The position numbers and the translations under genes are program-made. A DNA stretch of 64,000 nt from Octopus sinensis (taxonomy: Eukaryota), in the NCBI RefSeq assembly GCF_006345805.1, contig NC_043019.1, positions 10,725,360 to 10,789,359 on the forward strand. Reading direction: 5' to 3'. The notes under the pieces were generated by a model that worked only from the letters and a program-made list of their open reading frames with translations, was not told the origin of the DNA and did no database searches. Position 1 is the stretch's first letter, and every line of letters begins with the position of its first letter. Of the stretch, positions 1 through 53,708 are shown piece by piece.

Positions 1-3000
1 TTGAATTAATCAAACATTATCTTGTGGCTTTGAGATTTCGATAATCATCATCAGCATCATCATTTAACATCCGTTTTCCATGCTAGCATGGGTTGGATGG
101 TTCGACCGGGGTCTGGGAAGCCAGGAGGCTGCACCAGGCTCCAGTCTGATCTGGCAGTGTTTCTACAGCTTGATGCCCTTCCTAACGCCAATCACCCCCG
201 TGAGTGTAGTAGGTGCTATTTACGTGCCACTGGCACAGGGGCCAGAGGAGGCTGGCAAACGGCCACAATCGGTTGGTGCTTTTACGTGTCACCAACTTTT
301 GGTATTTTTTATATAGGCTTAGGAATGGCTGTGTGGTAAGTAGCTTGCTTACCAACCACATGATTCCGGGTTCAATCCCACTGCATGGCACCTTGGGCAA
401 GTGTCTTCTGCTATAGCCTCGGGCCGACCAAAGCCTTGTGAGTGGATTTGGTAGACGGAAACTGAAAGAAGCCTGTCGTATATATGTATATATATATGTG
501 TGTGTCTGTGTTTGTCCCCCCCAACATCGCTTGACAACCGATGCTGGTGTGTTTACGTCCCTGTAACTTAGTGGTTCAGCAAAAGAGACTGATAGAATAA
601 GTACTAGGCTTACAAAGAATAAGTCCTGGGGTCGATTTGCTCGACTAAAGGCAGTGCTCCAGCATGGCCACAGTCAAATGACTGAGACAAGTAAAAGAGT
701 AAAAGAGATATCTACTATCATTAGTGGAATAGCCATGAAATTAAATTTTGCAGTTAAAGGGTTAATGCTATAATTAAAGGAAGACCTTGCAAAGTGAGAG
801 GAGGGGACGTTACCAACACTTAACGATATTTATTAATTATTATTATTACATAATGTAAGCAAAAAAAAAAACTTCAACTAGCAATGAGAAATCAGTACAA
901 ATGTAAGATAAACACAAGTGTCTGACGATGGGGGGGGGCAGGGAAGGGGTTGTCGTCAACTCAACCTTTCTACCATTATACAATTATAGAAATGGGGGTG
1001 CAGAGGGGGGAAGGAGCAGGGGATGCTGGGAGTCGGGAGGAGGGGGAAATAATGACAGATACAAGAAGCTCTTGATCTCAGAAGTTATTCGAAGTTTCTT
1101 ACACACACACAGACACACACATGCATGTTCCCACCGTTACCACTGCTCTAGCAGTGTTGTTGTTGTTGTTGGTGGTGGTGGTGATGGTAGCGGTGGTGCA
1201 GAGAAGTGAAAGTAGAGGCTTTGCATGTTGTTACATAGAGTGGAATGGAGCAGACAGTCGAGTCGAGTCGGTTAAACGGGTCTTAATTTTGACAGCTCTC
1301 CTTGGCAGGATAAACAACTTAACTGCAACACTTAGTCAACCACTACAACAACAACCATAACAACAACAACCACCACCACCACCACCACTACTACTACTAC
1401 AGCCATCACTACTGTTAGTATAAACAATTATAATCAGCTACATAGCAATTCAAAACTATCCTCTATCTCATCATCATCATCATCATCTTTGAACTCACAC
1501 CCTCACAATTGTAAGTCTAACACTCTGACCACTGAGGCCATGCACCCTCACATGTTATACCCGATATAGTATCGTTTTAACATCCAATTTCCGTGCTTGC
1601 ATGAGTCAGACGAAATATGTTAAGGTGGATTTTCTTATGGTTGGGTGCCCTTCCTGTCACCTACCCTCACTTGTTGTTTCTAAGCAGCGCAATGTTTCCC
1701 ACATGACCAGACATGATTTTTGCAGAAGCCTGGAAATGAAGGACCCCACTTGCAGGACAGAGGACCAAAGCTTTGTGAGTGGATTTGGTAGACGGAAACT
1801 GAAAAGCAGCCCATCGTATATATATATGTATGTGTGTGTGTGTGTTTGTCCCCCAACATCGCTTGACAACCGATGCTGGTGTGTTTGCATCCCCCGTAAC
1901 TTAGCAGTTCGGCAAAAGAGACCGATAGAATAAGTACTGGGCTTAGAAAGAATAAGTCCTGGGGGTCGATTTGCTCGACTAAAGACGGTGCTCCAGCATG
2001 GCTGCAGTCAAATGACTGAAACAAGTAGAAGAGTGTTACTTTTCAAATTATTTGAAACAAAGTTGGTATATTTCAACAGAAATAGGATAATGAAAGGGTT
2101 AAAAGGAGGAGACAGAAACACTGTGGACAACTGTGTCCGAGTCTTAAGTAGAAGCACCAACAAGAACCTACTTCAAAAGATTTTGTTTGTGGTGATTGTG
2201 GATATGTAGCAAGCACCAATCAGAGTTTGCTTCCCACAGAAGAAAGCATAAGCCTACTCAAGATTGCCAATCAACACCATAGAGTGTCTCTTATATATTA
2301 ATCAAAGCTCAATTCAAAATCAAAGTAAGATGTGAAACCATCACTTGTCTGCAACAGGAGAGTTCACCATATTTATGTCACCATCATCATTTTTATGTCC
2401 ACTTTTTTGCATATCTGGATTGTTGGATGGTATATTTGTTGAAGTGGATTTTTCTATGGCTGGATGCCTTCCTCGTTGCCAACTGTCAACTGTTTCCAAG
2501 TTGGTCTTTTCCCCCATGATCAGAAACGAAAGACAGCACTTGCATGACAGTGGCACTCATTAACAACTATCATGTGATGTCAGAGAGACAAGTAAAACAC
2601 ACACATACACACACAATCATCATTTGATGTCTGTTTTCCATGCCGGCATTGCTTGGACAGTTCCACAGAAACCAACAAGTCGGAAGACTGCACCAATCCT
2701 TGCTGTCTGTTTGGCATGGTTTCTTATTTCTTTATTGCCCACAAGGGGCTAGACATAGAGGGGACAAACAAGGACAGACAAAGGGATTAAGTCGATTACA
2801 TTGACCCCAATGCGTAACTGGTACTTAATTTATTGACCCCGAAAGGATGAAAGGCAAAGTCGACCTCGGCGGAATTTGAACTCAGAACGTAACGGCAGAC
2901 GAAATACCTATTTCTTTACTACCCACAAGGGGCTAAACATAGAGGGGACAAACAAGGACAGACAAAGGGATTAAGTCGATTACATCGACCCCAATGCGTA

Positions 3001-4353
3001 ACTGGTACTTAATTTATTGACCCCGAAAGGATGAAAGGCAAAGTCGACCTCGGCGGAATTTGAACTCAGAACATAAAGATAGACGAAATACCGCTAAGCT
3101 AACGTTTCTGCCAGCTCGCTGCCTTTTGGCATGGTTTCTATGGCTGAATCCCCTGATTAGCTTCTTCCAGTTTCCGTCTACCAAATCCACTCACAAGGCT
3201 TTGGTCAACCCAATGCTATAGCAGAAGACACTTGCCCAAGGTGCCACACAGTGGGACTGAACCCAGGACCATGTGGCTGGGAAGCAAACATCACATCACA
3301 CAGCCACGCCTGCACACATACATGCATGCATGCACACACACACACATACATGCATGCATGCACACACACACACACACACACAGAGTGTTTAAAGATTTCT
3401 CTCCACACAATTTCATTTTGGTTGGGGTGTTTGTTTGTCATGGAAATGCAGTGAGATTGACTCCAACTACATTAAGGGTATGCGTCTATGGAGTACTCAG
3501 CCACTTGCATGTTAATTTCATAGGCAGGCTGTTCCATTGATTACTTAGTATGTATGCATGTATATCATCATCATCACCATTATCATTTAAATCCGTCTTC
3601 CATGTATGTATGTATGCTTGGTTATAAAAGAAACACCCCAAAAACAAACACCCAAAATCACAGTCGAAGACAAGAAATATAAACCAAGGGAGAAATCAAT
3701 CACCACCATCATCATCATCATCATCATCATCACCTCAATGATAAACACATATTCCGATCATCATCAATAACACACTAGAAATACATTGGTGTTTGTGTGA
3801 TGTGTGCATGTGACAGAGAGAGACAGACAGAGTGACAGAGAGAGAGAGAAAGAGAAAAAGATAGTGAAAGAGTGAAAGAGAGAGAGAGAGAGAGAGAGCA
3901 AGAGAGAGAGATTGAGTGACAGAGATAACTGACTTGTTCAATGTTAAAACATTGTCTTCACCTATTTCTAACTTCAACGAAAATAACGCAAGATAAAAGT
4001 GTGGAGACAACAAAAACAACAACAATATCATTATCATCATCATCGACGTCGTCACCACCTCCAAAGCCACCACTTACATACAGAGAGCGAGAGAGAGAGA
4101 GAGAGAGAGAGATAGAAATAAAGAGGAGACAGGTGAGAAAAAAAAGAGAGAAATTATGAGCGTCGCATATAATTTTCCAGCAACAGTGCCCCACACAGCC
4201 CACTTGGTTTTTCCAAAAATAATAAAAAATAATAATCTCCGAGATAAACCAATTGATAACGAGGTGAGATAATTATTCTCACATCCCCCCCCATACACAC
4301 ACACACAATATGTAAGAGGGACTAAAGAAAGATAATAAGAGGTGGCTACTCAC

Positions 4354-9058: not shown

Positions 9059-9645
9059 TTAATTCTTTATTGCCCACAAGGGGCTAAACATAGAGGGTAC
9101 AAACAAGGACAAAGGGACTAAGTCGATTACATCGACCCCAGTGCGTAACTGGTACTTATTTAATTGACCCCGAAAAGATGAAAGACAAAGTCGACCTTGG
9201 CGTGATTTGAGCTCAGAACGTAGTGGCAGACAAAATACTTATTTCTTTAATACCCACAAGGGGCTAAACACAGAGAGGACAAACAAGGACAGACAAATGG
9301 ATTAAGTCGATTATGTCGACCCCAGTGCGTAACTGGTACTTATTTAATTGACCCTGAAAAGATGAAAGGCAAAGTCGACCTTGGCGTAATTTGAGCTCAG
9401 AACGTAGTGGCAGACAAAATACTTATTTCTTTACTACCCACAAGGGGCTAAACACAGAGAGGACAAACAAGGACAGACAAACGGATTAAGTCGATTATAT
9501 CAACCCCAGTGCGTAACTGGTACTTATTTAATCGACCCTGAAAGGATGAAAGGCAAAGTCGACCTTGGCGGAATTTGAGCTCAGAACATAGCGGCAGACG
9601 AAATACCGCTACGCATTTCGCCTGGCGTCCTAACGATTCTGCCAG
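9059..9645 (-). mobile_element. Trimeric SINE (~180-bp units) within one 16-bp TSD
   Basis: TSD CTCTCCATAGACTCAT at 9043-9058 and 9646-9661. Confidence 0.85.
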
Positions 9646-19527: not shown

Positions 19528-20593
19528 ATAATTTTCCCACATTAACTTGTGTAGGTTAAACTACATAAAATGTTGGAGAAAGAAACCTAAATGTTTCTTA
19601 CAATATATACCAATGCATACATCATCATCATCATTTAACGTCCACTTTCCATGCTAGAATGGGTTGGACGATTTGACTGAGGACTGGCGAACCAGATGAC
19701 TGTGCCAGGCTCCAATCTGATCTGGCAGAGTTTCTACAGCTGGATGCCCTTCCTAACGCCAACCACTCTGAGAGTGTAGTGGGTGCTTTTACATGCCACC
19801 GGCACAGGAGTCAGTCCAACAGCACTGGCATCGACCTCGCTCGAACGTTTTGTTCATGTGCCACCAGCACAAGTACAGTAAGGCAACGCTGGTAACGATC
19901 ATGCTCAAATGGTGCTTTTTGCGTGCCCACCAGCACAGAAACCAGACAGCTGCTCTGGCAGTGACCGCGCTCGGATAGAGCTGTTAGCACACCACTGGCA
20001 CGGGTGCCAATCATCGAATTTGGTTAGCGAAATTTTTTCAGAGACCCTTAAAATACTATTGTGGATCCCTAATTTACTATTTTGTTGCATGGATCCCCAA
20101 AACTCTTATATGGACCGCCAGGGGCCAAATGGACCCCAGTTGAGAACCACTGAGCTAAGTGTTTGGAGTATGAATTAACATGAAATTTTGATGGAAGGTT
20201 TTTATTTAGATTTCATTAAAATAGGAGGTTTGTATCATACGACCAGGGAAAATCTTAGATGTGTTGCAAAATACACCGGGCCGACCAAAGCCTTGTGAAT
20301 GGATTTGGTAGACGGAAACTGAAAGAAGCCCGTCGTATGTATGTGTATGTATGTATATATATATATATCTATATAGTTGCCAGCCTCGCCTGGCACCTGT
20401 GCAGGTGGCACGTAAAAAGCACCCACTACACTCACGGAGTGGTTGGCGTTAGGAAGGGCATCCAGCTGTAGAAACATTGCCAGATAAGACTGGAGCCTGG
20501 TGCAGCCTTCTGGCTTCCCAGATCCCCGGTCAAACCGTCCAACCCATGCTAGCATGGAGAACGGACGTTAAACGATGATGATGATGATGATGA

Positions 20594-20645
<52 letters not shown>

Positions 20646-21749
20646 GTATGTGTGTGTATATGTTTGTGTCTGTGTTTGTCCCCTCAACATCGCTTGACAA
20701 CCAATGCTGAACTTAACAGTTCAGCAAAAGAGACCGATAGAATAAGTACTAGGCTTACAAAGAATAAGTCCTGGGGCAGATTTGCTCGACTAAAGGCGGT
20801 GCTCCAGCATGGCCACAGTCACATGACTGAAACAAGTAAAAGAGTAAAAGAGTAGAAAGGATTGTTAGCTGGTGTTTGGGATGTAAACTTTAAAATTTTG
20901 ATAGAAGAAAGTTTTAATTTTAATTAGTTCATAACACAAAGTTGGTTTGGTATCAAAAACGGTTACGACAGAGTGTTGTAGCTTAAAGTTTTGACTTCTA
21001 TTTTTAACTGGTCAAATGAGGTGCGCTGGGTTGTTGTTTTTTCTTCTTGTTTTGTTTTGCGTCACATGATATCTTATAACATTCCCGTTAAAGCAACTAC
21101 AGCGCACCTTCTCCAACAATGTCTGCACTTGAAAGTCAATGACATGTCAATGCGGTCACTCAACTGGCTTGAAATAGCAGTTAAATCCTCATGAAAGCAA
21201 CTCAATTGTTTTTATACAGAGCGCCGCCTCGACTGGCTTCCGTGCCGGTGGCACATAAAATACACCAATCCGACCGTGGCCGTTGCCAGCCTCGCCTGGC
21301 ACCTGTGCAGGTGGCACGTAAAACGCACCCACTACACTCACGGAGTGGTTGGCGTTAGGAAGGGCATCCAGCTGTAGAAACATTGCCAGATAACACTGGA
21401 GCCTGGTGCAGCCTTCTGGCTTCCCAGATCCCCGGTCGAACCGTCCAACCCATGCTAGCATGGAGAACGGACATTAAACGATGATGATGATGATGATGAA
21501 AGGAAGGACAGATTAGAAAATATTGTCCTTGATGTGAAGTTGCATGGTTTAGTGGTTAGGGTGTTGTACTCATGATCATAAGATCCTGGTTTCAATTCTC
21601 CAACCAGGCAGTCTATTGTATTTCTGAGCAAAACACCTCATTTCATGTTACTCCACTTCAATCAGCTGTACATGAATTCCAGCAATGGTGGGGAAGTTAA
21701 CCCTGCAATGGACTAGTGTTCCATTCAGGGGAAGTGTTGTAACATCAGT

Positions 21750-22136
21750 GGTGGAGGCGCAATGGCCCAGTGGTTAGGGCAGCGGACTCGCGGTCATAGG
21801 ATCGCGGTTTCGATTCCCAGACCGGGTGTTGTGAGTGTTTATTGAGCGAAAACACCTAAAAGCTCCACAAGGCTCCGGCAGGGGATGGTGGTGATCCCTG
21901 CTGTACTCTTTCACCACAACATTCTCTCACTCTTACTTCCTGTTTCTGTTGTACCTGTATTTCAAGGGGCTGGCCTTGTCACTCTCTGTGTCACGCTGAA
22001 TATCCCCGAGAACTACGTTAAGGGTGCACGTGTCTGTGGAGTGCTCAGCCACTTACACGTTAATTTCACGAGCAGGCTGTTCCGTTGATTCGGATCAACC
22101 GGAACCCTCATCGTCGTAACCGACAGAGTGCTTCCA
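21750..22136 (+). mobile_element. Full-length tRNA-derived SINE (same family as 7750-8140) with a 12-bp TSD
   Basis: TSD TGTAACATCAGT at 21738-21749 and 22137-22148. Confidence 0.9.
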
Positions 22137-24006
22137 TGTAACATCAGTCATTTATAAATATGAAAACTGGGTTAAGCTGTGGCCCAATTAGTCTGAGGGC
22201 ACACAATAAACCTAAGTCTAAGTCTCTTTAAGATTGTGAGATTGTGGTTTCAGTTCCCTGACTGGGTGATCTATTTGTGTTCTTGAGTAAAACACTTCAT
22301 TGCATGTTACTCCACTCCACTCAGTTGTGAGTGAATTCCAGTAATAGCGGGGAAGTTAAACCTGTGATGGACTGGCGTTCCATCCAGTAGGGAGTGTTGT
22401 AATGTCAGTTACTTATATGCCATGAAAAGCAGGTTCACCGTAGCCTTTTAAGTCCTAGATCCCACAATACACGTAAGTCTAAATCCTCTTAAGATCATAA
22501 GTTCATAGTTTCAATTCCTAGCAGTGCATTGTGTCCTTGAGTGAAACACTTCGTTCCATGTTGCCCCAGGCCCACTCAGCTGTAAAATTAATTGCAACAA
22601 TAACTTGGAAGTAGACCCTGTGAGAGATCAGCATTATTTATATACCTATTTTTTTATTACCCACAAGGGGCTAAACACAGAGAGGACAAACAGATTAAGT
22701 CGATTATATCGACCCCAGTGTGTAACTGGTACTTATTTAATCAACCCCAAAAGGATGAAAGGCAAAGTCGACCTCGGCGGAATTTGAACTCAGAACGTAG
22801 CAGCAGACGAAAAACCGCTCAGCATTTCGCCCGGTGTGCTAACGATTCTGCCAGCTTGCCGCCTTGCATTATTTATATACCATGCATCATTTATATACAT
22901 CATTTAAATACCTTGTGAGAGATCAGCATCGTTTATATATAAATTGAGTTAAGCTCTAACCTTATAAGTCCATAACCAAGGGTTCAACACAAACTTAAAT
23001 TTTAGTTTCCTCGAGATTGTGATTTCAATCCTCAGTCCAAGCAGTCCATTGCATTCTTAAACAAAACACTTCATTTCACATTGCTCCAGCACCACTCATC
23101 TGTAAAATGAGTTCCAACAATAACTGGTAAGTTAACCTTGCAATGGAGTGGCGTTCCATCCAGGGGTGAGGGAGTGTTGTAATCTCTGTCACTAATACAC
23201 CATAGAGAAAGGGTAATACTTTGACCTCGTGATTCCTAGTGCATGAGACCTATGTTTGAGTCTCTTTAAGATCATGGTTCCCATTCCTGGACCAGGGTTA
23301 ACTTCTTCGGCAAAGCCCGACAGACCTAAATAAATCTAAGATGAATTAACAAAAACGTCGAAATCGAATTGAACCACTATCCGACTCGTGGCCGATGCCA
23401 GCGCTGCCTCCACTGGCTTCTGTGCCGGTGGCACATAAAATACACCAATCCGACCGTGGCCGTTGCCAGCCTCGCCTGGCACCTGTGCAGGTGGCACGTA
23501 AAAAGCACCCACTACACTCACGAAGTGGTTGGTGTTAGGAAGGGCATCCAGCTGTAGAAACACTGCCAGATCAGACTGGAGCCTGGTGCAGCCTTCTGGC
23601 TTCCCAGATCCCCGGTCGAACCGTCCAACCCATGCTAGCATGGAGAACGGACGTTAAACGATGATGATGATGATGATGATGGGTGGATCACAGCTTAACT
23701 GCTTCTAAATCTGTCCATCTGCTTAGTGAACATTAAACCAGGAACTGAACAACAAGAATATTTCCGGTACTGATAACCACAACTTCCTTCCAGCATCCGT
23801 CACTAACAGTGATCCAGTTTTTCTGACTTCAGTCTGAAAAACAATGGAAACTGAATTTTGTCTGATGTCAAACTCATTCACAATAACTCTTTTAATTGCT
23901 TCTGTGAGACGTGTCACGTATAACAAGTTAAGTAGATTGCATCATTTATTGGACAATCTATCTTCCTCTTTGTCTGCCTCCATTTCTCTTTCTCTCTATA
24001 GATAAA

Positions 24007-24392
24007 CTAGCAGTATCGCCCGGCATTGCTCGGGTTTGTAAGGGAAATAACTATATAAGCATTTTTAGAGAGTTATAGCCAAAAAAATGCATTAAAAATG
24101 GAAAAAAAATAATGGTAAATTTTTTTTTAAATTGTTGACTCATCGTAGACATTTTTAGAGTTACTTCCCTTATATAATAGCGAAAAAATGCATTAAAATG
24201 GAAAAAAATGATGGTAATTTTTTTTTTAAATTGTAGACTCATCGTAGAATCGCGCTAATACCCAGAAGGGCTCGATATGAATCACGACTATAAGATACCA
24301 GGTTTTGGTTACACTGCACCGCAAATTGTGGGAGTAGTTAGGAATCTAAATCGTAGGAGACAGACATACAACTTGACTTTTATATATAAAGA
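24007..24392 (-). mobile_element. Non-autonomous Helitron
   Basis: Minus strand begins A|TCTTTATATATAAAAG and ends CCCGAGCAATGCCGGG-CGATACTG-CTAG|T: 5' TC, 3' hairpin plus CTAG, and an A/T insertion site. Confidence 0.8.
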
Positions 24393-25181
24393 TAAACATA
24401 CATATATGTACTCTTTTACTTGTTTCAATCATTTGACTGTGGCCATGCTCGAGCACCGCCTTTAGTCAAACAAATCGATCCCAGGACTTATTCTTTGTAA
24501 GCCTAGTACTTATTCTATCGGTCTCTTTTGCCAAACCGCTAAGTTCCGGGGACGTAAACACACCAGCATCAGTTGTCAAGCAATGTTGGAGGGAATAAAC
24601 ACAGACATACACACACACACACACACATATATACGACGAGCTTTTTTCAGTTTCTGTCTACCAAGTCCACTCAGAAGGCTTTGGTCGGCCCGAGGCTATA
24701 GTAGAAGACCATGACTGAACCCAGAACCATGTGGTTGGTAAGCAAGCTACTTACCACACAGCCACTCCTGTGCCTAGTAGAAAAGATTATTATTATTACA
24801 TGTAATTTATTTTAGCCTTCAATGGAGGGACAATACCCAAGTTTTGCAACTTATGCATGGCAAAAGAACTCACTATATAAAAAGAACTCATATATATATA
24901 TATGTATATATATTTAGCAATTAAGGACAACTACTTAATAAGGAAAACTTAACAAGAAATTGTCAGGTAGATAGCGTAAAAACCTCATAAGAGAAAAAAT
25001 TTCGAAAATAATTATTTCTTATTGAACATATTAATTTATATATAGAGGGCATTATACATACATGCCAGGAGGCATTCTACATACACGCCATACGCTAAGA
25101 GGGACAATCAGTCATTTCTACCAAAAATATTACTAATCCCACCGAATGCAATTTTTCAAAGAAAGACATTTAAAAATATAT

Positions 25182-25229
25182 AGACCTGTATCACAGTGAT
25201 TTCATACTTACGTAATCATCAGCAGGCCT
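25182..25229 (-). ncRNA. Minimal type I hammerhead ribozyme (family 1, inverted copy)
   Basis: Exact reverse complement of 25802-25849. Confidence 0.8.
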
Positions 25230-25801
25230 GAATATACTATAAATAAACAACGACCTGCCTCGCTTAAGCCGATCAGCTAACTGATCAATATCAACGAAGC
25301 ACATGGGTGGGTTTATATATACTATATCCGGATGAATGGCAAACTTTTACGAATTGCATTTCGGGAGAGGAAAAGTTTTTTCGGAATAAAAAATTTAGCA
25401 ATTAAGGACAACTGTAATATTTTTGGTAGAAATGACTGATTGTCCCTCTTAGCGTATGGCGTGTATGTAGAATGCCTCCTGGCATGTATGTATAATGCCC
25501 TCTATATATAAATTAATATGTTCAATAAGAAATAATTATTTTCGAAATTTTTTTTCTCTTATGAGGTTTTTACGCTATCTACCTGACAATTTCTTGTTAA
25601 GTTTTCCTTATTAAGTAGTTGTCCTTAATTGCTAAATTTTTTATTCCGAAAAAACTTTTCCTCTCCCGAAATGCAATTCGTAAAAGTTTGCCATTCATCC
25701 GGATATAGTATATATAAACCCACCCATGTGCTTCGTTGATATTGATCAGTTAGCTGATCGGCTTAAGCGAGGCAGGGTCGTTGTTTATTTATAGTATATT
25801 C

Positions 25802-25849
25802 AGGCCTGCTGATGATTACGTAAGTATGAAATCACTGTGATACAGGTCT
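25802..25849 (+). ncRNA. Minimal type I hammerhead ribozyme (family 1)
   Basis: AGGCCTG-CTGATGA-T TAC GTAA GTA T-GAAA-TCAC T GTGA-TA-CAGGTCT. It has a 7-bp helix I, intact CUGAUGA and GAAA cores, a GNRA-capped helix II and a quasi-palindromic helix III. Predicted cleavage is after AUA (25842). Confidence 0.8.
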
Positions 25850-26004
25850 ATATATTTTTAAATGTCTTTCTTTGAAAAATTGCATTCGGTGGGATTAGTA
25901 ATATTTTTGGTAGAAATGACTGATTGTCCCTCTTAGCGTATGGCGTGTATGTAGAATGCCTCCTGGCATGTATGTATAATGCCCTCTATATATAAATTTA
26001 TATG

Positions 26005-26056
<52 letters not shown>

Positions 26057-26059
26057 TGC

Positions 26060-27240
26060 ACTACTATCCAAAAGTTTAAGACCACCTACAAAAGTTTGTT
26101 TCAAAGGGGAATTTTTAGTTCAATGTCATCACCATCATCATCATCATCATCGTTTAACGTCCATTTTTCCGCGCTAGCACGGGTTGGACAGTTCGACCGG
26201 GGTCTGGGAAGCCAGGGGCTGCACCAGGCTCCAGTCTGATCCGGCAGAGTTTCTACAGCTGGATGCCCTTCCTAACGCCAACCACTCCGCGAGTGTAGTG
26301 GGTGCTTTTTATGTGCCACCTGCACAGGTGCCAGGGGGGGGGGTCCGGCATCGGTCACGATCGGTTGGAGCTTTTAATGTGCCATTGGCACGGAAGCCAG
26401 CCAAGGCGGAGCTGGCAACGGTCACGTTCGGATGGTGCTTTTTTTATGTGCCACCGGCACTGGAGCCAGTTGAGGCAGCGCTGGCATTGGCCACGTTCAT
26501 TTTAATCATCTAAATGAACCTACCTTCGTTGCTCCAATAAAGGACGTTTAGATCTGCCTGGTAGGAAGCTGCAGGACCTTTGTGAGTGTTTTCTGGTCTG
26601 TAAAATTTATTGATCAATTTAGATAAATTTTTTTGTATAAAAATATGGAATAACATATTGCATAAAGCTTGAGATTTATTCGATATAGAATAACACTATT
26701 TATACATATTTTACATGCAAATAATCATATTTCTTGACAGCAAGTCTATTTGGGAATGTTGTCAAAATCATTGCAATATATTTTGATTATTTACACTCCT
26801 TATGTGCTGTCAGTTGAGATGACATCACTTAATGACTGTGTTAAATGTGTTATTGTTTCTTTCAGGTTCAATTATTAAAAATAAGTAAAATTAGTGAAAT
26901 TCCTAAAAGTCAACCGATATATGGGCAAAACCAGTAATTTATCACATGGAAAGAGACAAAGCATTGTCACATTAAGTAAGTGAAGGCTAGGTATTATGAA
27001 ACAAGAAAAAAATAACAACAGAGCTCAGTCAGGTCGTCCAAATGTGACTTCTAAATCACAGGATAAGTTCATCGGAGTTACCAGTCTTGGAAACAGGCGC
27101 TCGACACAAAATGAAATTGCTGCACAAATAAGTGAAACCAGCAATGCTAACGTGTCTCCTACAACCATGAGAAGACTCATTGCTGCCGGTCTAAATGGCC
27201 ATTGTGCTGCCAGAAAACCACTGTTTCGACTACATTGGAC
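26060..27240 (+). mobile_element. Tc1-like transposon relic (left end and DNA-binding domain), interrupted by an RTE tail at ~26130-26497
   Basis: TIR-like CACTACTATCCAAAAGTTTAAGACCAC. Translations MGKTSNLSHGKRQSIVTL and SGRPNVTSKSQDKFI...RRLIAAGLNG..AARKPL match the Tc1 paired-like HTH region. Confidence 0.75.
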
Positions 27241-27358
27241 TCCTCATTCACATAATCACCAAACCTGGAGCTTAACTATAGTCTGTCCATAGCACTTACT
27301 CAGCATTACCTGACACCTTTGAGTCTTTTTGACACCATTACCTCTCATAAACTCAATG

Positions 27359-27398
<40 letters not shown>

Positions 27399-28526
27399 TA
27401 CATATATATTCTAAAAGACTCCGCCGGTTACGACGACGAGGGTCCTAGCTGATACGATCAACGGAACAGCTTGCTCGTGAAATTAACGTGCAAATGGCTG
27501 AGCATTCCACAGACACGTGTACCCTTAACGTAGTTCTCGGGGATAATCAGCGTGACACAGAGAGTGACAAGGCTGACCCTTTGAAATACAAGTACAACTC
27601 ATTTTTGCCAGCTGAGTGGACTGGAGCAACGTGAAATAAAGTGTCTTGCTTAAGGACACAACGTGTCGCCGGGAATCGAACTCACAACCTTACGATCATG
27701 AGCCGAATGCCCTAACCACTCAGCCACGCGCCCTCATACATATATATATATACATACACACACATACATCTTTTCTTCTTTTATTTGTTTCAGTCATTTG
27801 ACTGTGGCCATGCTGGAGCACCACCTTACAGGGTGTTTTAGTTAAAGAAATTAACCTCAGGACTTGTTCTTTCTAAGTCTAGTGCTTATTCAATTGGTGT
27901 CTTTTGCCAAACCACTAAATTACAGGGATGTAAATACACCAACATTGGTTGTCAAACGATGGTGGGGGGGGGAAACACAGGCACATACACATAAATATAT
28001 ACATATATGATGGGCTTCTTTCAGTTTCTATCTACCAAATCCACTCACAAGGCATTGGTGTCAGCCCGAGGCTATAGTAGAAGACACTAGCCCAAGGTGG
28101 GACTGAACCCGGAACCATGTGGTTGGGAGGCAAGCTTCCTACCATACAGCCATGCCTGCCTATATATATATATACATGCATACACACATATAAATATATG
28201 AACATAAATATATATACATGCATTTATACACACACACACATATATATACACACACATTATTAGTTATGTACCATTGTACAATTACTTCTAAATTAATTTC
28301 ATTGAATTTTAATGGAAACTTTACAATAAGATGTTGCCATAAATTTAGAAAGACATTCAAATATATCAATTATTAATTATAATTTTAAAAATATTATATA
28401 ATAAGGTTAATTCTTAAAATAGGTTTAATATAGTGAGTAAATAGATAACTAATTGTTGTGATGTAAAGTATTTAAATTTCTTTTAATCATAATGTAGAAT
28501 TCTTATCTTTATTTTTTATTCTTTAA

Positions 28527-30575
28527 CCCTTTAGTGACCAGACCAGCTGAAAATAATTCCCCTTTATTTGTTTGGACCAGCCAAATCTGGCCTCATTCCT
28601 CTACAAAATCGCTAAAAAAATAAGCAAATCATATTATTAAATTCTCTTAGCTTTGAGATAATGCAAGATAAAGCCTTACCCACCTTTATTCAAGTGAAAA
28701 TATGATGAAATTTTTGAGACATTTTGGTTTTTTCCAATATTTCCTGAGAAGTGTACATCGTAGTTTTTAATGATATTGCATCAGCAATTAGTGATTTTGT
28801 CTTTGAATGTTTTACTCTTGATGATGTACAAAATATAAACGAAAACAACAGTGATTTTGTCTTCAGACAAATCTGATATTGATATTTATGTATCTTTGTC
28901 GGATGAGGACGATTTTGATCACAAAAGTGATAAAAATGAAAGTGATGAAAATGATATTGAAATCATTATGGCAACATGGTTGAAGATTATTACATCAACC
29001 ACAATTCCCAATTTCACAGAAAAGACTAGTCCACAATGAAAGTCTACCTCCTGATGATCAACCACTGGATTCTCTATTTTTATTTTTACTGAAGGGTTTT
29101 TTTGAAACTTTAGTTTTTACTTTTTTGAAACTGTTGTGGTGGAAATATATAAATACGCTCAATGCATATTTCTATTCGTGGAAGACCTGTCTATGATGGC
29201 AGCCTGCTGATATTGTGGAAATGCAAGTTTTTTTTTACTCTACTCATTGTGTTTGGTATCAAACAGCTTCCTTGGCTGTGGAACTACTGGATTCCTGATA
29301 TAAGGTATGGTGATCCAGATATCTCCAGATATGGTGACCCAGATATATCCAGATATCTAGCTATATTTAATTCAAGTATTGTTTATGTAAAAAGCCACAA
29401 GGTACCTCCGCCACCAAAGGACTACGACCATTTGAAATTTCGAGTTGACACCTGTGTGGGTGGCACGTAAAAAGCACCCACTACACTCACGGAGTGGTTG
29501 GCGTTAGGAAGGGCATCCAGCCGTAGAAACACTGCCAGATCTGACTGGGCCTGATGCGGCCTTCCGGCTTCACAGACCCCAGTTGAACCGTCCAACCCAT
29601 GCTAGCATGGAAAACGGACGCTAAACGATGATGATGATGATGATGATGATGATGGTGACCCAGATATCTAGCTATATTTAATTCAAGTTTTGTTTATGTA
29701 AAAAGCCACAAGGTACCTCCGCCAACAAAGGACTATTATCATTTGAAATTTCGAGTTGACGTTGCATCTCAGTCACATGAGGGCTTTTCTTCCAGAAAGT
29801 ACAGAACTGGGAGAAAAGCAAAAATTAACGGAGGTGGATGTCAACAGAGAAAATATTGACTTCCATAAAGTGGAAAAAATAAATGGAAGGAAAAAAGTTT
29901 GCAGACTGCGTTCACAACAAAAAACAAAAACTGTGACAGAATATCAGGTTGAGACTGCATATACGTGTTCATTTTGCAAAAGTACTCTTGTGTAAAGGGT
30001 GCTTTGCACAGTTTCATGATAGAAATATGGCATAACTATATTTTGTCGTTTGATAGTAATACTGTCATGTATTCCTTTCATGTTATACGAATAATATGTG
30101 TAAGTGAGAAATACATATTAAATTTCAGTATGTTACACACCTGTATTCACCTTTGTCTCGCCTGTTAATGAGCTTTTTTTTATTAGCTACAGTCATCTAA
30201 TAAATGTATTCATTAAATTGTATAAGAGTACATACATAGCCAAATGGTACATTGACTTGTCAAAGAATTTTGTACTTTATTTGCAATGACAATTTTTGAA
30301 GGAAATATAGAGAAAGAATAAAATCTTGTACCGATTATACCTGTATTTTAATTAATTCAAATTAATGTACTTCATCTTGAAAATTGGCAAAATCTCCCTT
30401 CTTTTCTTTCTCCTTCTTTCTGTTTCTCTGTCTCTCTGAAATGGCCATGAAAAGCCCCTGACAATATTCCCTTTCTTCAGAAAGTTTCCGTTCACGAATT
30501 CTGTATTATTTACACACCGAAACACTAGTTAGTGTGTATAGAAGTATTTATTGATAAACGGCCAGTTCTATAGGG
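28527..30575 (+). mobile_element. piggyBac-like transposon relic
   Basis: Left end TTAA|CCCTTT and degenerate right end ...TAGGG|TAA. Acidic N-terminal fragment (SDIDIYVSLSDEDD) and Cys-rich C-terminal fragment (RKKVCRL...ETAYTCSFCKSTL, continuing after a frameshift to CFAQFH). Confidence 0.7.
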
Positions 30576-30934
30576 TAAGGATTAAGATTATATAGTAACC
30601 CCAATCCTCTCCTAAGCTTCAAATTCAGTTTCTCGCTACTTGAATTCATGTAATGGCAAAATCAGGTGGTTGCAAATCTCAACAACCTGCAATTCGAGTT
30701 GTCGTTTTCTAGTGAAATATTACAAAAAGGTTGTTTTATCTTCTCTACAGAATTCGAAAATAATTTTTGACATATTCCACACAGTTGACTGCTAGACTTG
30801 AAATACAAGCAAATGAAATTTCCCGAAATTTCCTATCAATCCACTGAGGATTATGATAGTCATCATCATGAGGATGATGACGATGACATAGCACCAGCAA
30901 CAATAATAATAATAATAATAATAATAACAATGAA

Positions 30935-31270
30935 ATTATTGTATACAGTGCTCAGGTGCACCACAACTTGTCAGAAAGTGCGTATAGAGTATATGCAGTA
31001 ATGTACAAATGTCTGGAAAGCGAACAATGTATGAGTCAGATACATGCTTGTGTGTGTATGGAGGGGAGAAAATCAAGTGTAGGGGTTGGTGAATCTCAGG
31101 AAGCATGGAAGTTTTGAAGGATGCAGTGCTCCGACAACTAACAACTGATGCCGGCAGTTTGTTCCATGCTTCAGCAACTCTCAGCGTGAAAAAAATGTTT
31201 CCTAAAGTCATGGGAGCTGTGCTGTTTTCTGACTTTGTAAATATGTCCACGGGTGTTAGACGGGTGGAGT
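30935..31270 (-). mobile_element. CR1/L2-clade LINE 3' end
   Basis: FFTLRVAEAWNKLPASVVSCRSTASFK is the typical CR1 ORF2 C-terminus. Confidence 0.8.
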
Positions 31271-34202: not shown

Positions 34203-34819
34203 TTTCTTTACTGCCCACAAGGGGCTAAGCACAGGGAGGACAAACAAAGACGGACAAACGGATGAAGTCGATTATACCAACCCCAGTGCGTAACTGGTAC
34301 TTATTTTATTATTATTATTATTATTAATCGACCCTGAAAGGATGAAAAGCAAAGTCGACCTTGGCAGAATTTGAACTCAGAACTTAGCGACAGACGAAAT
34401 ACCTATTTCTTTACTACCCACAAGGGGCTAAACACAGAGAGGACAAACAAGGACAGACAAACGGATTAAGTCGATTATATCGACCCCAGTGCATAAATAG
34501 TACTTATTTAATCGACCCCGAAAGGATGAAAAGCAAAGTCGACCTCGGCAGAATTTGAACTCAGAACGTAGCGACAGACGAAATACCTATTTCTTTACTA
34601 CCCACAAGGGGCTAAACACAGAGAGGACAAACAAGGACAGACAAACGGATTAAGTCGATTATATCGACCCCAGTGCGTAACTAGTACTTATTTAATCAAC
34701 CCCGAAAGGATGAAAGGCAAAGTCGACCTTGGCGGAATTTGAACTCAGAACGTAGCGGCAGACGAAATACTGCTAAGCATTTCGCCCGGTGTGCTAACGT
34801 TTCTGCCAGCTCACCGCCT
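34203..34819 (-). mobile_element. Trimeric SINE within one 19-bp TSD, inserted in the 5S pseudogene
   Basis: TSD TACAGCCATATCATTCTTA at 34184-34202 and 34820-34838. Confidence 0.85.
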
Positions 34820-48087: not shown

Positions 48088-51000
48088 GATAGACAGAGTC
48101 ACACACCTAGCTTTAGTGATAATAGAAAATGAAACAAAATTCTCGCATAGCCGAAATAAAATAATACATCTACAATTTCCGGCATAATTAAACTTGTGTG
48201 CCACGTTCCACTACGAATTTTCTCATAGCTTTCAAAAATAGATATTTTATGATGAAATTTTCTACAAATGCCTTTCAGACGGTATAGAGAGCGACTATAT
48301 CGGAATTTAATATATAAAAAATAGTTGGTGGGCGCGCACACATGACAATTTTTTTTCAAAATTTTAAGTTGTATTTTGTAGATATCTTGAGGATCTTTTC
48401 GGTTTGAACGGCAGTTTTTTAAAAATAATTTCCACGTAACTAAACACTTTAAAACTTCGTATACTGGTAGAATGTGTTTATAAAACATCTTTTTCTCTTG
48501 GCTTTATTGAGAAAATTCTATAGTTTGTAAGATATTTGTTGTTGTTTTTCTTCTTCAATTTCTGCAATTTCAACCAATCACTGACGTCTATTGAGGTAAA
48601 AAAAAAACATTCTGTGCCGTATGAATATGTCCCTCGTTTAAGAAACAGATTGGGTTTATTTACATTTGTGAAGAAAAAAAAATATACCCTTCCCCCCACC
48701 CCTAACCCTAAAACATTGAAATGCAATAGATCGATACTAGGGTCATGATTATGGGTGACAATTTCATATGACACCACTAGTAAAAACTGCCGTTCAAACC
48801 GAAAAGATCCCCAAATGTTCCCATCTTTCATGTGATATGTAATGGCCGACATCATCTTACTCATTTACACTTGAATAAATTGGAGCAATGTGAAATTAAG
48901 CGCTTAAGAACACAACACTCCGCCCGGTCCTGGAATTGAAACCACTCTCGCAAGATGCTAACAACTAGGCCATGCGCCTTCACGCCAGGAGACACAGCTA
49001 GATGCATTTAAAAAAAAATTATAAATTCTCACACATACTGGGCACTTGCCCGGAGGTGCCACGGGCCTGGGGACCCAATGCAAATTTATGTATGCAATAG
49101 TTGAGTTTGTTGGGGCTCCAACACATTGCTGTGCTTGGGGACCTATAGTGTTGTTGAGGCGGCCCTGCTGAGATAGGGACAACAGCTGATTATATCGACC
49201 TCAGTATTTCACTGGTACTTTATTTTATCGACCCGGGAAAAATTAAAGGCAAAGTTGGCCTTTACAAGATTTGAACTCGTAATGTAATGAGCCATAGCTT
49301 AATACCAGAAGGCATCTTTTTAGAAAAAAATATTATGAATAATTTCCAAACAGAAAATTCTAGATGTTCAAGTTCTAATTACTACGATTCATTTTTTAAA
49401 GTGCAGCAAATATTCAAAATAACTTTCTATGGTTTAAGTTCATTATATTATAGGCCAAAATATATAAATACCATTTTTTAATTATATATTTCTTTGACTA
49501 AAGTCAAAGGGCGCCGCAGTATTTTTAATTCGTTCTAAAGTGCACCAAAAGTGAAATGTGCTTGTGAACGCAGTGACAACACACAAGGTGGGTCGTTTGA
49601 CTGAGCGGTGTCCCATACAAAAATGTAGAGGTCCACCGTGACATTTGTTATATTTAAGTAAAGAAAGTGGTGTGTCTACCGATGACAGGTCTTTCATGAT
49701 AACACTATTTATATGCCTGCTGTTGTTCTTGTATACTTTGTCCTTCAGTTTAATATGGATAGTTAGAATACAGGATCTTTTCGGTTTGAACGGCAGTTTT
49801 TTTAAAATAATTTCCACGTAACTAAACACTTTTAAACTTCGTACACTGGTAGAATGTGTTTATAAAACATCTTTTTCTCTTGGCTTTATTGAGAAAATTC
49901 TATAGTTTGTAAGATATTTGTTGTTGTTCTTTTCTGCAATTTCAACCAATCAATGACGTCTATTGAGGTGAAAACATTGTGCCGTATGAATATGTCCCTC
50001 GTTTAAGAAACAAATTGGGTTTATTTACATTTGTGAAGAAAAAAGATACCCTTCCCCCACCCCTAACCCTAACCTTAAAACAGATTGGAATGCAATAGAT
50101 CGATAATAGGGTCATAATTATGGGTGACAATTTCATATGACACCGCTAGAAAAAACTGCCGGTCAAACCGAAAAGATCCTATATTTATATACACACATAC
50201 ATGTATAATTTGAATTGAACATCTGTTTCAACTTTGATGTTTTGGTTTTATTATGGCACTGGGTGAGCTGAAGACGATATAAAGTATATTGGTTTCAATT
50301 TTTGACACAAGGGCAGCAATTTCGGGGGAGTGAGTACGTTGATTATATCGACCCCAGTGCTCAACTGGTACTATCGACCCTGAGAGTACAAGTTTGAAAA
50401 GTAACAGGATGAAAAGTAAAGTCGAACTCAGAACGTGAGGATGGACGAAATACCCATTTCTTTACTACCCACAAGGGGCTAAACATAGAGGAGACAAACA
50501 AGGACAGACAAACGAATGAAGTCGATTACATCGACCCCAGTGCATAGCTGGTACTTAATTTATCGACCCCGAAAGGATGAAAAGTAAAGTCGACCTCGGC
50601 GGAATTTGAACTCAGAACGTAACGGCAGACAAAATACCTATTTCTTTATTACCCACAAGGGGCTAAACACAGAGAGGACAAACAAGGACAGACAAATGGA
50701 TTAAGTCGATTATATCGACCCCAGTAACTAGTACTTATTTAATCGACCCCGAAAGGATGAAAGACAAAGTCGACCTCGGCGGAATTTGAACTCAGAACGT
50801 AGCGGCAGACGAAATACCTATTTCTTTATTACCCACAAGGGGCTAAACACAGAGAGGACAAACAAGGAGAGACAAACAGATTAAGTCGATTATATCAACC
50901 CCAGTGCATAACTGGTACTTAATTTATCGACCCCGAAAGGATGAAAGACAAAGTCCATCTCGGCGGAATTTGAACTCAGAACGTAACGGCGGACGAAATA

Positions 51001-52970
51001 CCGCTAATCATTTTACAAGACGCGCTAACGATTCTTCCAGCTCCATTTATATTATTGTAATTTCAATTATATATAGATATATAGATACAAGGCCTCAGAT
51101 TGATGGGTAGGTAGTATGCCTGGGCATTACCTTGAAGGGTTTAGTCAAATTAATCGAACCCAGTATTTATTTTAAAGCCTGGTCTCTCTCACCGAAACCG
51201 TTAATGTAAAGATATTGGTCAATCCGAGGTTTAATGGCTGGAAGACATTTGTTCAAAGAGACGCATCAAAAGAGCTCCTTGTGGGCAATAAAGAAATATA
51301 TATAGAGATTAAGCCTTTGATTTCGTTCCGTAACTACAGAGAGAGAGAGAGAAGGGAGTAGGGATCTGGTCAGAACATTTCCAAGGCGTTTGTTTAGCCC
51401 AAGGCGTTATTCTAGATTCAGCTGACCCATTATCTATTCAATAGGACGGGTTTCCACATACATAATAATACTATGAATATGAGGCATATTTACACAAGTG
51501 CTCCTCCTTCCCCAATCCGTCTTTGTTCCCTCACAACTTGAAGAAAAATCGATATTTTTAATATAATTTTCTACGAATATCCTTCAGATGGTTGTAGAAT
51601 TACGATTTTATCGAAATTTAATTTAAAAAGAAAACGATAGGAGCGAAGACATACAAGCTGACACACATTTATCTATAAAATGAAACGAGTAAATTTGAAA
51701 GAAATTGCTGCGCACACCAGTCTTTTTCTTTTTCCTTTTTTTCTTCTTCACAAAATTATTTGGATATACTCGGAATATACACGAACTGAAAAATATTTGT
51801 AGAAAATTTCATTGAAAAATATCCATTTTCCGAGAAGTTATAAGGAAACAAATTCGAGTGAAAGGCCCACTTGTGTAGGTATGCCGGATATGGACATGTG
51901 TTTTGCTGGTGCTATTGTTGCTGTCTAGCCCTTATATCAACAAAGATCAAACTGACCAACGATTAAAAACGTTCCAATAGTGACCATCTGTTGTATTTTT
52001 GTTATTCTTTGAAATGTCAAACAGTATATCTAAGACTGCATAAATCACATGAATCAAATATATTCTTTTTCTTTTTTTTTCAATGGCAATTATAATATTT
52101 AGATAGAAACATTACTATTTCTGAATCTCTCACAGATATTCAGTAACAGTACTTTAAAGTAAAGACTATTTGCCAACATAACGTGGCAGTCCTGGATAGG
52201 ACGAATGTTACTATTGTTTAGCCACCTGGTAACGTCGAAATGCTCGAAATTAAAGTCGAAATATGTTGCAACATATAGAATTTTCTCAATAAAGCCAAGA
52301 AAAAATGATGTTTTATAAACACATTCTACCAGTATACGAAGTTTAAAAGTGTTTAGTTAACTAGAAATTATGTTGAAAACTGCCGTTCAAAAGGAAAAGA
52401 TCCCGTTCGAGTAACATCGTACGCCAGGGGAGTCCACCCTGTTGCCACTTTTTTTTTTGTCATTAACCTTTTTGAGACACTATTTTTATACAGAATATTA
52501 AATAAAAGCCTGTTATCCAAAATTTTATTGTATTAAGGCGGCGAGCTAGCAGAAATGTTAGCACGCTGAGCAATATGCTTACTGGCATTTCGTCCGTCTT
52601 TATGCTCCGAGTTCAAATTCTGCCAACGTCGACTTTGTCTTTCATCCTTTCGGGGAAAGATAAATAAAGTACCAGTTGAACACTGGGGTCGTCGTAATTT
52701 ACTTTCTCTGAACTTGCTGGCCTTGTGACAAAATCTGAGATGAATATTTTTTATACTTCAGGAAATACTCTTGAGTCGTTTTTGTTTACTGTAAATGTTG
52801 AGTTGTGGCTCTTATTACTATGCTCCCGTGGTTTGTTTGTGTTCATGCTGGAATACCAAATCGGGATGTAGACAAATCAGCATGTATATAAATTTATACA
52901 CTCACACACATATACACAGCGCCCAGTGGGACTGAACCTGAGGCCTCATGGTTGGGAAGCAAGCTTCTTA

Positions 52971-53708
52971 TTTCTTTATTGCCCACAAGGGGCTAAACAT
53001 AGAGAGGACAAGCAAGGATAGACAAAGGGATTAAGTCGATTACATCGACTCCAGTGCGTAACTGGTACTTATTTTATCGACCCCAGTGCATAACTGGTAC
53101 TTAATTTATCGACCCCGAAAGGATGAAAGGCAAAGTCGACCTTGGCGGAATTTGAACTCAGAACGTAAGCATTTCGCCCGGCGTGCTAACGTTTCTTATT
53201 TCTTTATTGCCCACAAGGGGCTAAACATAGAGGGGACAAGCAAGGATAGACAAAGGGATTAAGTCGATTACATCGACTCCAGTGCGTAACTGGTACTTAT
53301 TTTATCGACCCCAGTGCATAACTGGTACTTAATTTATCGACCCCGAAAGGATGAAAAGCAAAGTCGACTTCGGTGGAATTTGAACTCAGAACGTAAGCAT
53401 TTCGCCCGGCGTGCTAACGTTTCTTATTTCGACCCCGAAAGGATGAAAGGCAAAGTCGACCTCGGCGTAATTTGAACTCAGAACGTAGCGGCAGACGAAA
53501 TACCTATTTATTTACTACCCACAAGGGGCTAAACACAGAGAGGACAAATAAGGACAGACAAACGGATTAAGTCGATTATATTGACTCCAGTGCGTAACTG
53601 GCACTTAATTTATCGACCCCGAAAGGATGAAAAGCAAAGTCGACCTCGGCGGAATTTGAATTCAGAACGTAAGCATTTCGCCCGGCGTGCTAACGTTTCT
53701 GCCAGTTC
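52971..53708 (-). mobile_element. Multimeric SINE within one 12-bp TSD
   Basis: TSD GCAAGCTTCTTA at 52959-52970 and 53709-53720. Further multimers at 2725-3124 (TSD TTTGGCATGGTTTCT) and ~50455-51042. Confidence 0.85.

Follow-up and report, generated by a model that had tools for sequence, protein, structure and literature searches.

Fold-back elements with paired fixed ends and hammerhead motifs in the Octopus sinensis genome: a probable non-LTR retrozyme mobilised by Penelope-like elements

Background

Insertions of Penelope-like elements (PLEs) are described, in the available text of PMC8557442, as including an inverted, 5'-truncated copy, bearing a tail of 30-40 bp at one end and being biased towards microsatellites; the same text names the origin of the tandem and inverted insertions, and of the one-sided tail, as the next task. 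According to the available part of PMC11167929, a PLE protein in purified form nicks AT-rich DNA on both strands and extends them; its starting points on the RNA are two internal sites, between which the tail lies. The start sites did not differ between strands, the substrate was mainly uncleaved RNA, and cleavage by the ribozyme was unnecessary in vitro. PLE-driven mobility has also been hypothesised for retrozymes, with circles as the intermediates, in the available text of PMC7229834. Tx1 elements, for their part, target other repeats (PMC4494074, in its available part).

A 64,000-nt stretch of the Octopus sinensis genome (contig NC_043019.1, positions 10,725,360 to 10,789,359 of the forward strand; hereafter the window) contains a repeat at 24912-25998 in which a preliminary description, made from the sequence alone, saw a young hammerhead-bearing fold-back retroelement. 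Analysis of this locus and its relatives points, with a probability of roughly two in three, to a young family of non-coding hammerhead units, forming fold-backs with one fixed end per arm, that is likely mobilised by a PLE reverse transcriptase and endonuclease priming on both DNA strands, and that is probably copied from circular RNA.

Results

Structure of the locus

The sequence at 24912-25998 is a fold-back consisting of two divergent, permuted arms of a single non-coding unit of ~481 nt, the numbering of which starts here at window position 25414. The left arm (24912-25413, minus strand) is 502 nt long and comprises unit 204-484 followed by 1-224, its outer end being termed site B; the right arm (25414-25998, plus strand; ~585-592 nt) comprises unit 1-484 followed by 1 to ~101 and ends at site A, with a BLAST match reaching 26005, beyond ~25998. 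These measurements bear out the earlier reading of permuted ~481-nt monomers, in which the left arm was given ~20 nt of redundancy at a period of 481 and the right arm ~1.2 units at a period of 484, as the repeated portions are found to be 21 nt (left, terminal) and 108 nt (right) at those periods. The two arms start at different positions in the unit, and the small homopolymer indels said to be their only differences prove to be one of 1 nt and one of 2 nt. The inner inversion junction, between 25413 and 25414, is blunt at this locus, and its unit positions vary between loci. Both arms face outward in ribozyme sense and both run into (TA)n, as had been noted, with the left flank at 24891-24911 and the right at 25999-26016, the latter followed by (CA)n.

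The site A end motif (GCCCTCTATATATAA..., 25980-25998, plus strand) would mark the first or second start of reverse transcription and the site B end motif (GTCCTTAATTGCTA..., 24912-24929, minus strand) the other. The ~120 nt between the two sites form a 'tail', present on the outer end of the left arm only (24912-25035, minus strand) and comparable to that in the available text of PMC11167929. Each arm carries one hammerhead motif, at 25802-25849 on the plus strand, with cleavage predicted after A25842, and, in identical form, at 25182-25229 on the minus strand, with cleavage predicted between 25189 and 25188. Six ORFs of the window gave no Pfam match.

Two inverted copies of a common SINE-like repeat (23387-23681 and 26130-26495) flank the element, at distances of ~1.2 kb and ~0.1 kb respectively, and would enlarge the hairpin RNA formed on read-through.

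Size, age and subdivision of the family

The 44-nt ribozyme core occurs in 1,190 exact copies in the 2.72-Gb genome, and a looser hammerhead motif has 4,307 matches; with none found in reversed-pattern controls, a chance origin of the motif is excluded. Counted on the forward strand, as reverse counts are inflated by overlapping matches, the end motifs followed by (TA)n number 473 for A and 440 for B, which when doubled give roughly 900-950, or roughly a thousand, insertions. Many loci are tandem arrays of two to ~16 consecutive units. Relatives range from 99% down to ~60% identity with the unit, and those with multiple units retain its layout.

The absence of any credible ORF, asserted in the preliminary description, is upheld: the longest ATG-initiated ORF has 29 codons, in a natural two-unit stretch (L064). 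Judged on this and on a GC content of 33%, the unit is AT-rich and non-coding, as in non-LTR retrozymes, and presumably lacks LTR, PBS and PPT; in many family loci two or more type I hammerhead motifs follow one another, one in every unit, and the copies are dispersed and recently mobile (1,190 cores and ~900-950 ends of each kind). On these sequence features the element is probably a non-LTR retrozyme mobilised by a PLE. The original proposal of a young, non-coding hammerhead family of retrozyme or PLE type finds support in its copy number and tandem units, in the covariation of the helices, in the targeting of (TA)n and in ends of the PLE kind. No cephalopod retrozyme was found in the literature searched, to which the supplementary species lists of 10.64898/2026.07.22.740005, a source available in part, may add some.

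Sister subfamilies with units of ~475 nt were also observed, at 72-76% identity (L181, L182 and L186) and 60-70% identity (L160 and L168-L178). The first three share the A and B ends of the main family, and L186 is an array of ~14 near-identical units, so that a second lineage also looks young.

The hammerhead motif and predicted RNA structure

The window motif has the CUGANGA and GAAA core, NUH triplet and helices I-III of a type I hammerhead: a helix I of 7 bp, CUGAUGA, a helix II made up of a U.U opposition and 3 bp closed by a GUAA loop, GAAA, a palindromic helix III of 5 bp with a 1-nt loop, and an AUA triplet. It had been set beside minimal type I hammerheads, a term that does not apply in the sense of the available text of PMC4209133, given these dimensions of helices I and III. 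An Rfam scan, which the preliminary description had proposed as a check, returned no hammerhead match in 20000-31000 even at E<=1, the only hits being (CA/TA)n noise.

Comparison across subfamilies shows that helix III is invariant, that pairs in helix I switch between G-C and A-U and between U-A and C-G, both sides changing together, and that the first pair of helix II may be U.U, A-U, G-U, G-C or A.C. The catalytic core and helices are kept, with compensatory change, down to ~60% identity. The hammerhead of each unit had been described as intact, which is a prediction, because in the young subfamily a U.U mismatch opens helix II at a position where G-C is preferred. The U.U opposition is found in L181 and L182 too. 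Among predicted retrozyme dimers from Xenopus, one of nine was cleaved, according to the available part of 10.64898/2026.07.22.740005.

Folded alone as a single strand, the motif is no better than shuffled sequences (z about -1), and the active monomer fold lies 2 kcal/mol above the minimum. Helix III is predicted to owe its stability chiefly to pairing between two molecules (-10.1 kcal/mol for the duplex), with which dimer-type hammerhead cleavage, as described in the available text of PMC4209133, would fit; the hammerheads may thus act as dimers through their palindromic helix III. In the predicted fold of the whole unit, double changes were found in 30 of 86 pairs, where shuffled sequences gave 14.3 and slid controls 4-9, a comparison favoured by the fold having been predicted from the same nine sequences in which covariation was counted. 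Circular folds of the sense strand score z -4.1 to -8.5 relative to shuffles and those of the antisense strand lie 3-6 SD below, and in circular folds helix I is predicted to close across the cleavage point with a probability of ~0.9-1.0.

Another dispersed element, unrelated in sequence, has a hammerhead motif of like helix III design, with a 4-bp palindrome, a 1-nt loop and an AUA triplet (L148:7700-8100, L164:7277-8051, L131:935-1823 and L037:2255-2641), and is partly inverted in L164.

Outer ends are fixed and paired

The preliminary description had suggested tabulating the start and end permutations of the unit genome-wide; carried out on mapped loci, this tabulation revealed a regularity that the description had missed. 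In all 77 scorable fold-backs, or ~75 once two pairs of probable local duplicates are removed, one arm ends at site A and the other at site B, neither A+A nor B+B being seen, while the inner junction varies. The sites were placed on 46 fold-backs, at unit 98-108 (~100) for A and unit 219-232 (~221) for B. These fold-backs, all with one A and one B end (46/46), belong to a set of 62 mapped elements drawn from 37 best-match loci, the window and 22 contig-1 loci taken in order from the list of exact cores; the remaining 16 have a single arm, ending at A in nine cases and at B in seven. Fold-backs make up 21 of the 31 elements in the unselected contig-1 sample, and all 21 have the A+B pair, as do 20/20 fold-backs at new loci and 11/11 scorable loci interrupted by a LINE, three others having an end beyond the stretch or being rearranged. 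The fixed ends displayed adjoin (TA)n.

This strict pairing points to different fixed start sites for the two strands. The rule accordingly predicts a distinct RNA start site for each nicked strand, contrary to the only in vitro PLE result, as given in the available text of PMC11167929.

Such regularity also bears on the origin of the inversion. Among the public contigs listed, none of the pieces spans the whole stretch or its inversion junction, and no spanning read for the window locus is found among them, which would leave room for an assembly chimera or a fold-back made at the DNA level. That origin is nevertheless scarcely credible, as 77 fold-backs with different junctions share one asymmetric pair of outer ends, whereas fold-back read artefacts would give symmetric palindromes, and later LINE insertions, with their duplications, lie within the arms.

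Arm lengths, inner junctions and the template

The arms face outward in ribozyme sense in every fold-back, and 70 of 92 exceed one unit. Median lengths are 732 nt for A arms and 1,012 nt for B arms, with maxima above 5 kb; the lengths fit an exponential distribution (KS p 0.16) and show no correlation between partner arms. Fold-back arms contain up to ~12 units, and one single-arm array has ~16. Inner 5' ends occur all around the unit (chi-square p 0.11), three of 92 lying near the cleavage site where four would be expected, so that there is no pile-up. Microhomology of at least 3 nt is present at 14 of 46 junctions, against 6.6% expected (p 9e-7); the others have 1-2 nt of microhomology (12), are blunt (4) or carry inserts (16), several of which match nearby element sequence.

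Substitutions per site amount to 0.0034 within arms, 0.0025 between the arms of a locus and 0.0161 between loci. Rare variants are often fixed across all units of both arms, as at unit 347 in L128 (4+2 units), 44 in L137 (4+2) and 101 in L203 (3+1), and both arms of the window copy carry at unit 328 a private G>A (window 25741), although variants that look private may belong to lineages sampled too thinly, and arrays can be made uniform by assembly polishing. The 37 locus-wide haplotypes found in 60 loci indicate that there were many sources and that each went through a bottleneck of one unit. Of 262 units, 260 keep the cleavage site unchanged, which, with the lack of a 5'-end pile-up, argues that the template was either uncleaved or ligated. 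Taken together, haplotype unity and intact cleavage sites indicate that a single unit type, in a single orientation and either uncleaved or re-ligated, gave rise to each insertion. A circle would explain the copying of several units of one haplotype directly, and the evidence leans towards a circular RNA template, although in assembled contigs, the material used here, a tandem array and a circle yield the same joints.

The alternative is that a PLE primes at A and B from an uncleaved, linear multi-unit transcript, with the hammerhead weak or dispensable, no circle formed, and slippage or unequal crossing-over re-expanding the arrays after insertion. Such a template accounts equally well for the intact cleavage sites and random 5' ends, and the U.U in helix II, the dispensability of cleavage in vitro (PMC11167929, available part) and the local expansion proposed in the available text of 10.64898/2026.07.22.740005 all speak for it, as do mixed arrays at three loci, with blocks of two haplotypes in L035 and a mosaic pattern in L051 and L059; this mixing may reflect template switching, mixed alleles or a polishing artefact. 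Against a linear template, a single haplotype runs through the two arms, which are often both multi-unit, the 37 haplotypes in 60 loci call for many one-unit bottlenecks, no element contains an internal orientation change copied from a source fold-back, and the catalytic core and helices have been conserved with compensatory change to ~60% identity. On this evidence a linear template is considered the less likely of the two.

The idea that edited RNA had served as template was also considered, on the basis of an A>G excess among locus-wide private variants. The excess was 7/19 against 3/136 at first, then 1/21; pooled counts were 6/37 against 11/210 (p 0.027), with p 0.11 in a strand test, and the idea was dropped as the replication had failed.

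Relation to Penelope-like elements

The family has the tail at one end, the inverted 5'-truncated arm and the microsatellite target of PLE-mobilised insertions (A+B in 77/77 fold-backs, with (TA)n flanks). Linkage to ORFs encoding a reverse transcriptase (RT) and GIY-YIG endonuclease, had been raised in the preliminary description. Autonomous RT+GIY-YIG elements of the same genome are young and have the CxxC linker motif of the Neptune/Nematis type, and in one such family, whose elements terminate in (TA)n, nine of 36 ends carry a ~35-nt tail; fold-backs occur in one of its 24 loci, examined as 10-kb stretches, and this one bears the tail on one arm and none on the other. No PLE sharing sequence with the unit was found, 150 of the 5,029 genomic GIY-YIG candidates having been scored. 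Neither BLAST nor a profile built from 21 subfamily stretches detected a terminal repeat homologous to the unit in the PLE loci examined, and local alignment of PLE 3' ends with units reached a best z of 2.9, revealing no homologous pLTR. This missing helper counts against the PLE explanation, as no examined PLE locus shares sequence with the unit.

Among the PLEs observed, one young family (L148:3832-6174, L149-L154 and L271-L287) has frames of 781 aa, an upstream ORF1, (TA)n ends, an optional ~35-nt tail and a hammerhead-like motif in which U3/A8 replaces C3/G8. A second (L155:3845-6169, L157 and L038:5400-6889) has a hammerhead-like motif of its own, and in L038 shares one (TA)n tract, end to end, with a retrozyme copy. 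In L165, a PLE fold-back, both arm ends are identical.

The units could also be solo pLTRs that remain where copies of an ordinary coding PLE were truncated. In the available text of PMC8557442 the ends, the tail, the inversion and the (TA)n target all belong to the features of PLEs, and the genome holds thousands of GIY-YIG candidates, of which 150 of 5,029 were scored. Autonomous PLEs, however, have an RT and GIY-YIG ORF between their pLTRs, and no ORF of this kind lies in the unit or continues an arm. In the mapped loci units instead follow one another head to tail, up to ~16 times; PLE fragments near the element in L038 and L141 are set apart by their own 3' end and (TA)n; and a same-sense PLE lies directly upstream of none of 12 singleton relatives. 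Solo pLTRs are accordingly held to be very unlikely.

A LINE and a related element insert into the unit

T1, a 5.26-kb L1/Tx1-like LINE with zf-CCHC, RVT_1 (RT) and zf-RVT domains, is exemplified by the copy at G000:C10:39409452-39414713 (L193/L194), the 22 other 3' ends lying in L208-L230. Of its 23 genomic 3' ends, 15 are followed by unit 325-329 (14 identified by BLAST and one, in L209, by its short duplication) and eight lie elsewhere. This proportion exceeds the 20% of flanks in one repeat by which target-specific Tx1 elements are recognised in the available text of PMC4494074. Full-length copies are 98-100% identical and lie in sense orientation inside pre-existing A|B fold-backs, with duplications of ~15-36 bp and at times as tandem dimers. 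At several of the off-target ends the sequence starts with GAT, as it does at the target. Relatives of the T1 protein carry PF03372, one of 120 listed being a TX1 149 kDa protein, and the closest named relative of the nested LINE protein, among the matches listed, is from Argonauta; by its domains and this one named match, T1 is tentatively placed in Tx1.

A 1.7-kb sequence, T2, occupies the same site in the four loci examined, which were chosen for that junction (L187:3972-5672, L264, L265 and L266). With an ORF related to the first ORF of T1, no RT and a 23-bp duplication, T2 is likely a non-autonomous partner of T1. The corresponding insertion site, unit 325-347, is empty in the window copy (25738-25760, plus strand). 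Elsewhere in the window, tandem repeats of 184-228 bp at 2725-3092, 9059-9606, 34324-34770, 50424-51002 and 52965-53430 have units with a 25-42-nt match to the T2 3' end, and are possibly a Tx1-tailed SINE inserting in tandem.

The youth of T1, with its 98-100% identical full-length copies, and its physical association with the unit might suggest that such a LINE mobilises the family by L1-type twin priming. Both T1 and T2, however, sit in pre-existing A|B fold-backs with duplications of their own, the unit has neither a T1-like 3' tail nor poly(A), and T1 does not have (TA)n ends. Moreover, the second priming site is fixed in the unit fold-backs, whereas in L1 twin priming it varies. Mobilisation by a LINE is thus regarded as highly improbable.

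Clustered A>G changes in a public assembly

The preliminary description had expected read-through to produce double-stranded RNA, a likely substrate for ADAR. Four public sequencing runs were compared with 25134-25616. In one of these, X2, a public assembly guessed to be RNA, from an organism different from that of the best DNA run and without matched DNA, four of the six loose ends listed, from a table with 49 further rows of loose ends, differ from the window by A>G alone, when read on one strand or the other; three are on the ribozyme strand and one is on the complement. These changes affect 19 of 21 eligible bases within 58 letters, with no other change, and in one loose end the catalytic GAAA is converted. 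The other two of the six appear, by eye, to come from a diverged subfamily. At each of six interior sites changed in X2, A is present in all but at most three of ~450 genomic units, and DNA run X15 shows almost none of the changes; a seventh site is commonly variant in the genome. More than three same-type changes within 20 nt were found in no genomic unit examined, and the edited 18-mer is absent from the genome.

The octopus belongs to an animal group known for heavy RNA editing. The clustered, two-strand A>G changes in this single run fit ADAR hyper-editing of hairpin RNA from fold-backs, and lend support to the expectation of an ADAR substrate. The fold-backs would then be a dispersed source of long double-stranded RNA.

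Discussion

For a non-autonomous retrozyme driven by a PLE and inserted by twin priming, the reading preferred here, we infer the following order of cleavage, circle formation, helper action and priming. A multi-unit RNA would be transcribed and cleaved by hammerheads acting as dimers, with helix I then holding the two ends of the monomer for ligation into a circle of ~481 nt. A PLE enzyme, presumed to be dimeric, would nick a (TA)n tract on both of its strands, with priming at RNA site A (unit ~100) from one nick and at site B (unit ~221) from the other. Each cDNA would travel around the unit until falling off at random, producing arms of less than one to ~12 units, and end-joining would connect the two cDNA ends, by way of microhomology or short templated inserts. 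Read-through of the resulting fold-back would generate long double-stranded RNA, likely to be edited by ADAR.

A more extended and tentative reading, given somewhat less than even odds, is of a three-tier system of RNA parasites. In it, the ~481-nt circle would be copied by a dimeric PLE with its halves locked to two start sites, the host would hyper-edit the double-stranded RNA, including GAAA, and a Tx1-like LINE and its derivative would land in the copies. Were this so, each fold-back would be the fossil of an asymmetric rolling-circle twin priming, and editing of GAAA would switch the ribozyme off.

The family makes two PLE and retrozyme questions, the mechanism of insertion and movement through circles, testable with one small substrate. 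As the unit is short and has hundreds of young copies, genome-wide counts of arm lengths, junctions and haplotypes are feasible. In addition, a LINE with specificity for a ribozyme element would represent a new kind of Tx1 target.

Both the class of element and its link to PLEs are already in print; the fixed paired ends, long tail, cephalopod host and LINE targeting are apparently new. The first three were not found in the literature searched, and the supplementary list of PMC8557442 may include cephalopod PLEs; LINE targeting of a ribozyme retroelement was likewise not found in that literature.

Among described systems, metazoan non-LTR retrozymes (PMC7229834 and 10.64898/2026.07.22.740005, in their available parts) resemble the family in their non-coding, AT-rich tandem units with type I hammerheads, dispersed arrays, structured unit and coexistence with PLEs, a likeness that here rests on sequence, the cleavage and circle being predicted. 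The unit of 481 nt compares with ~170-400 nt in the former source and 51-972 in the latter. Unlike the retrozymes in the available text of PMC7229834, in which the word 'inverted' is absent, most insertions here (21 of 31 in the unselected sample) fold back and have both of their fixed ends in (TA)n. The EN+ PLEs of Neptune type (PMC8557442 and PMC11167929, in their available parts) share partial tandems, an inverted 5'-truncated arm, a tail at one end, (TA)n and a hammerhead with a palindromic helix III; the present family, by contrast, has no ORF and its tail is ~120 nt rather than 30-40. Its strict pairing of one A with one B end also differs from the available account in PMC11167929, where the strands show no difference in start site, and its fold-backs are far commoner than in the same-genome PLE family (one of 24 loci). 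The MRC1-type elements of Chlamys, as presented in the available text of PMC8557442, are similarly non-autonomous PLE derivatives with multicopy head-to-tail insertions; they mostly lack a hammerhead and have a 3' end like that of their autonomous partner, whereas the family here has a hammerhead and no partner was found. Finally, T1 and T2 parallel Tx1-clade LINEs such as Tx1L in Tx1D, Tx1-Mar and Keno (PMC4494074, available part) in using a single site in a multicopy element, in their duplications and in forming tandem LINE dimers, but differ in that their target is a ribozyme retroelement, T1 itself being classed by its domains and one named match.
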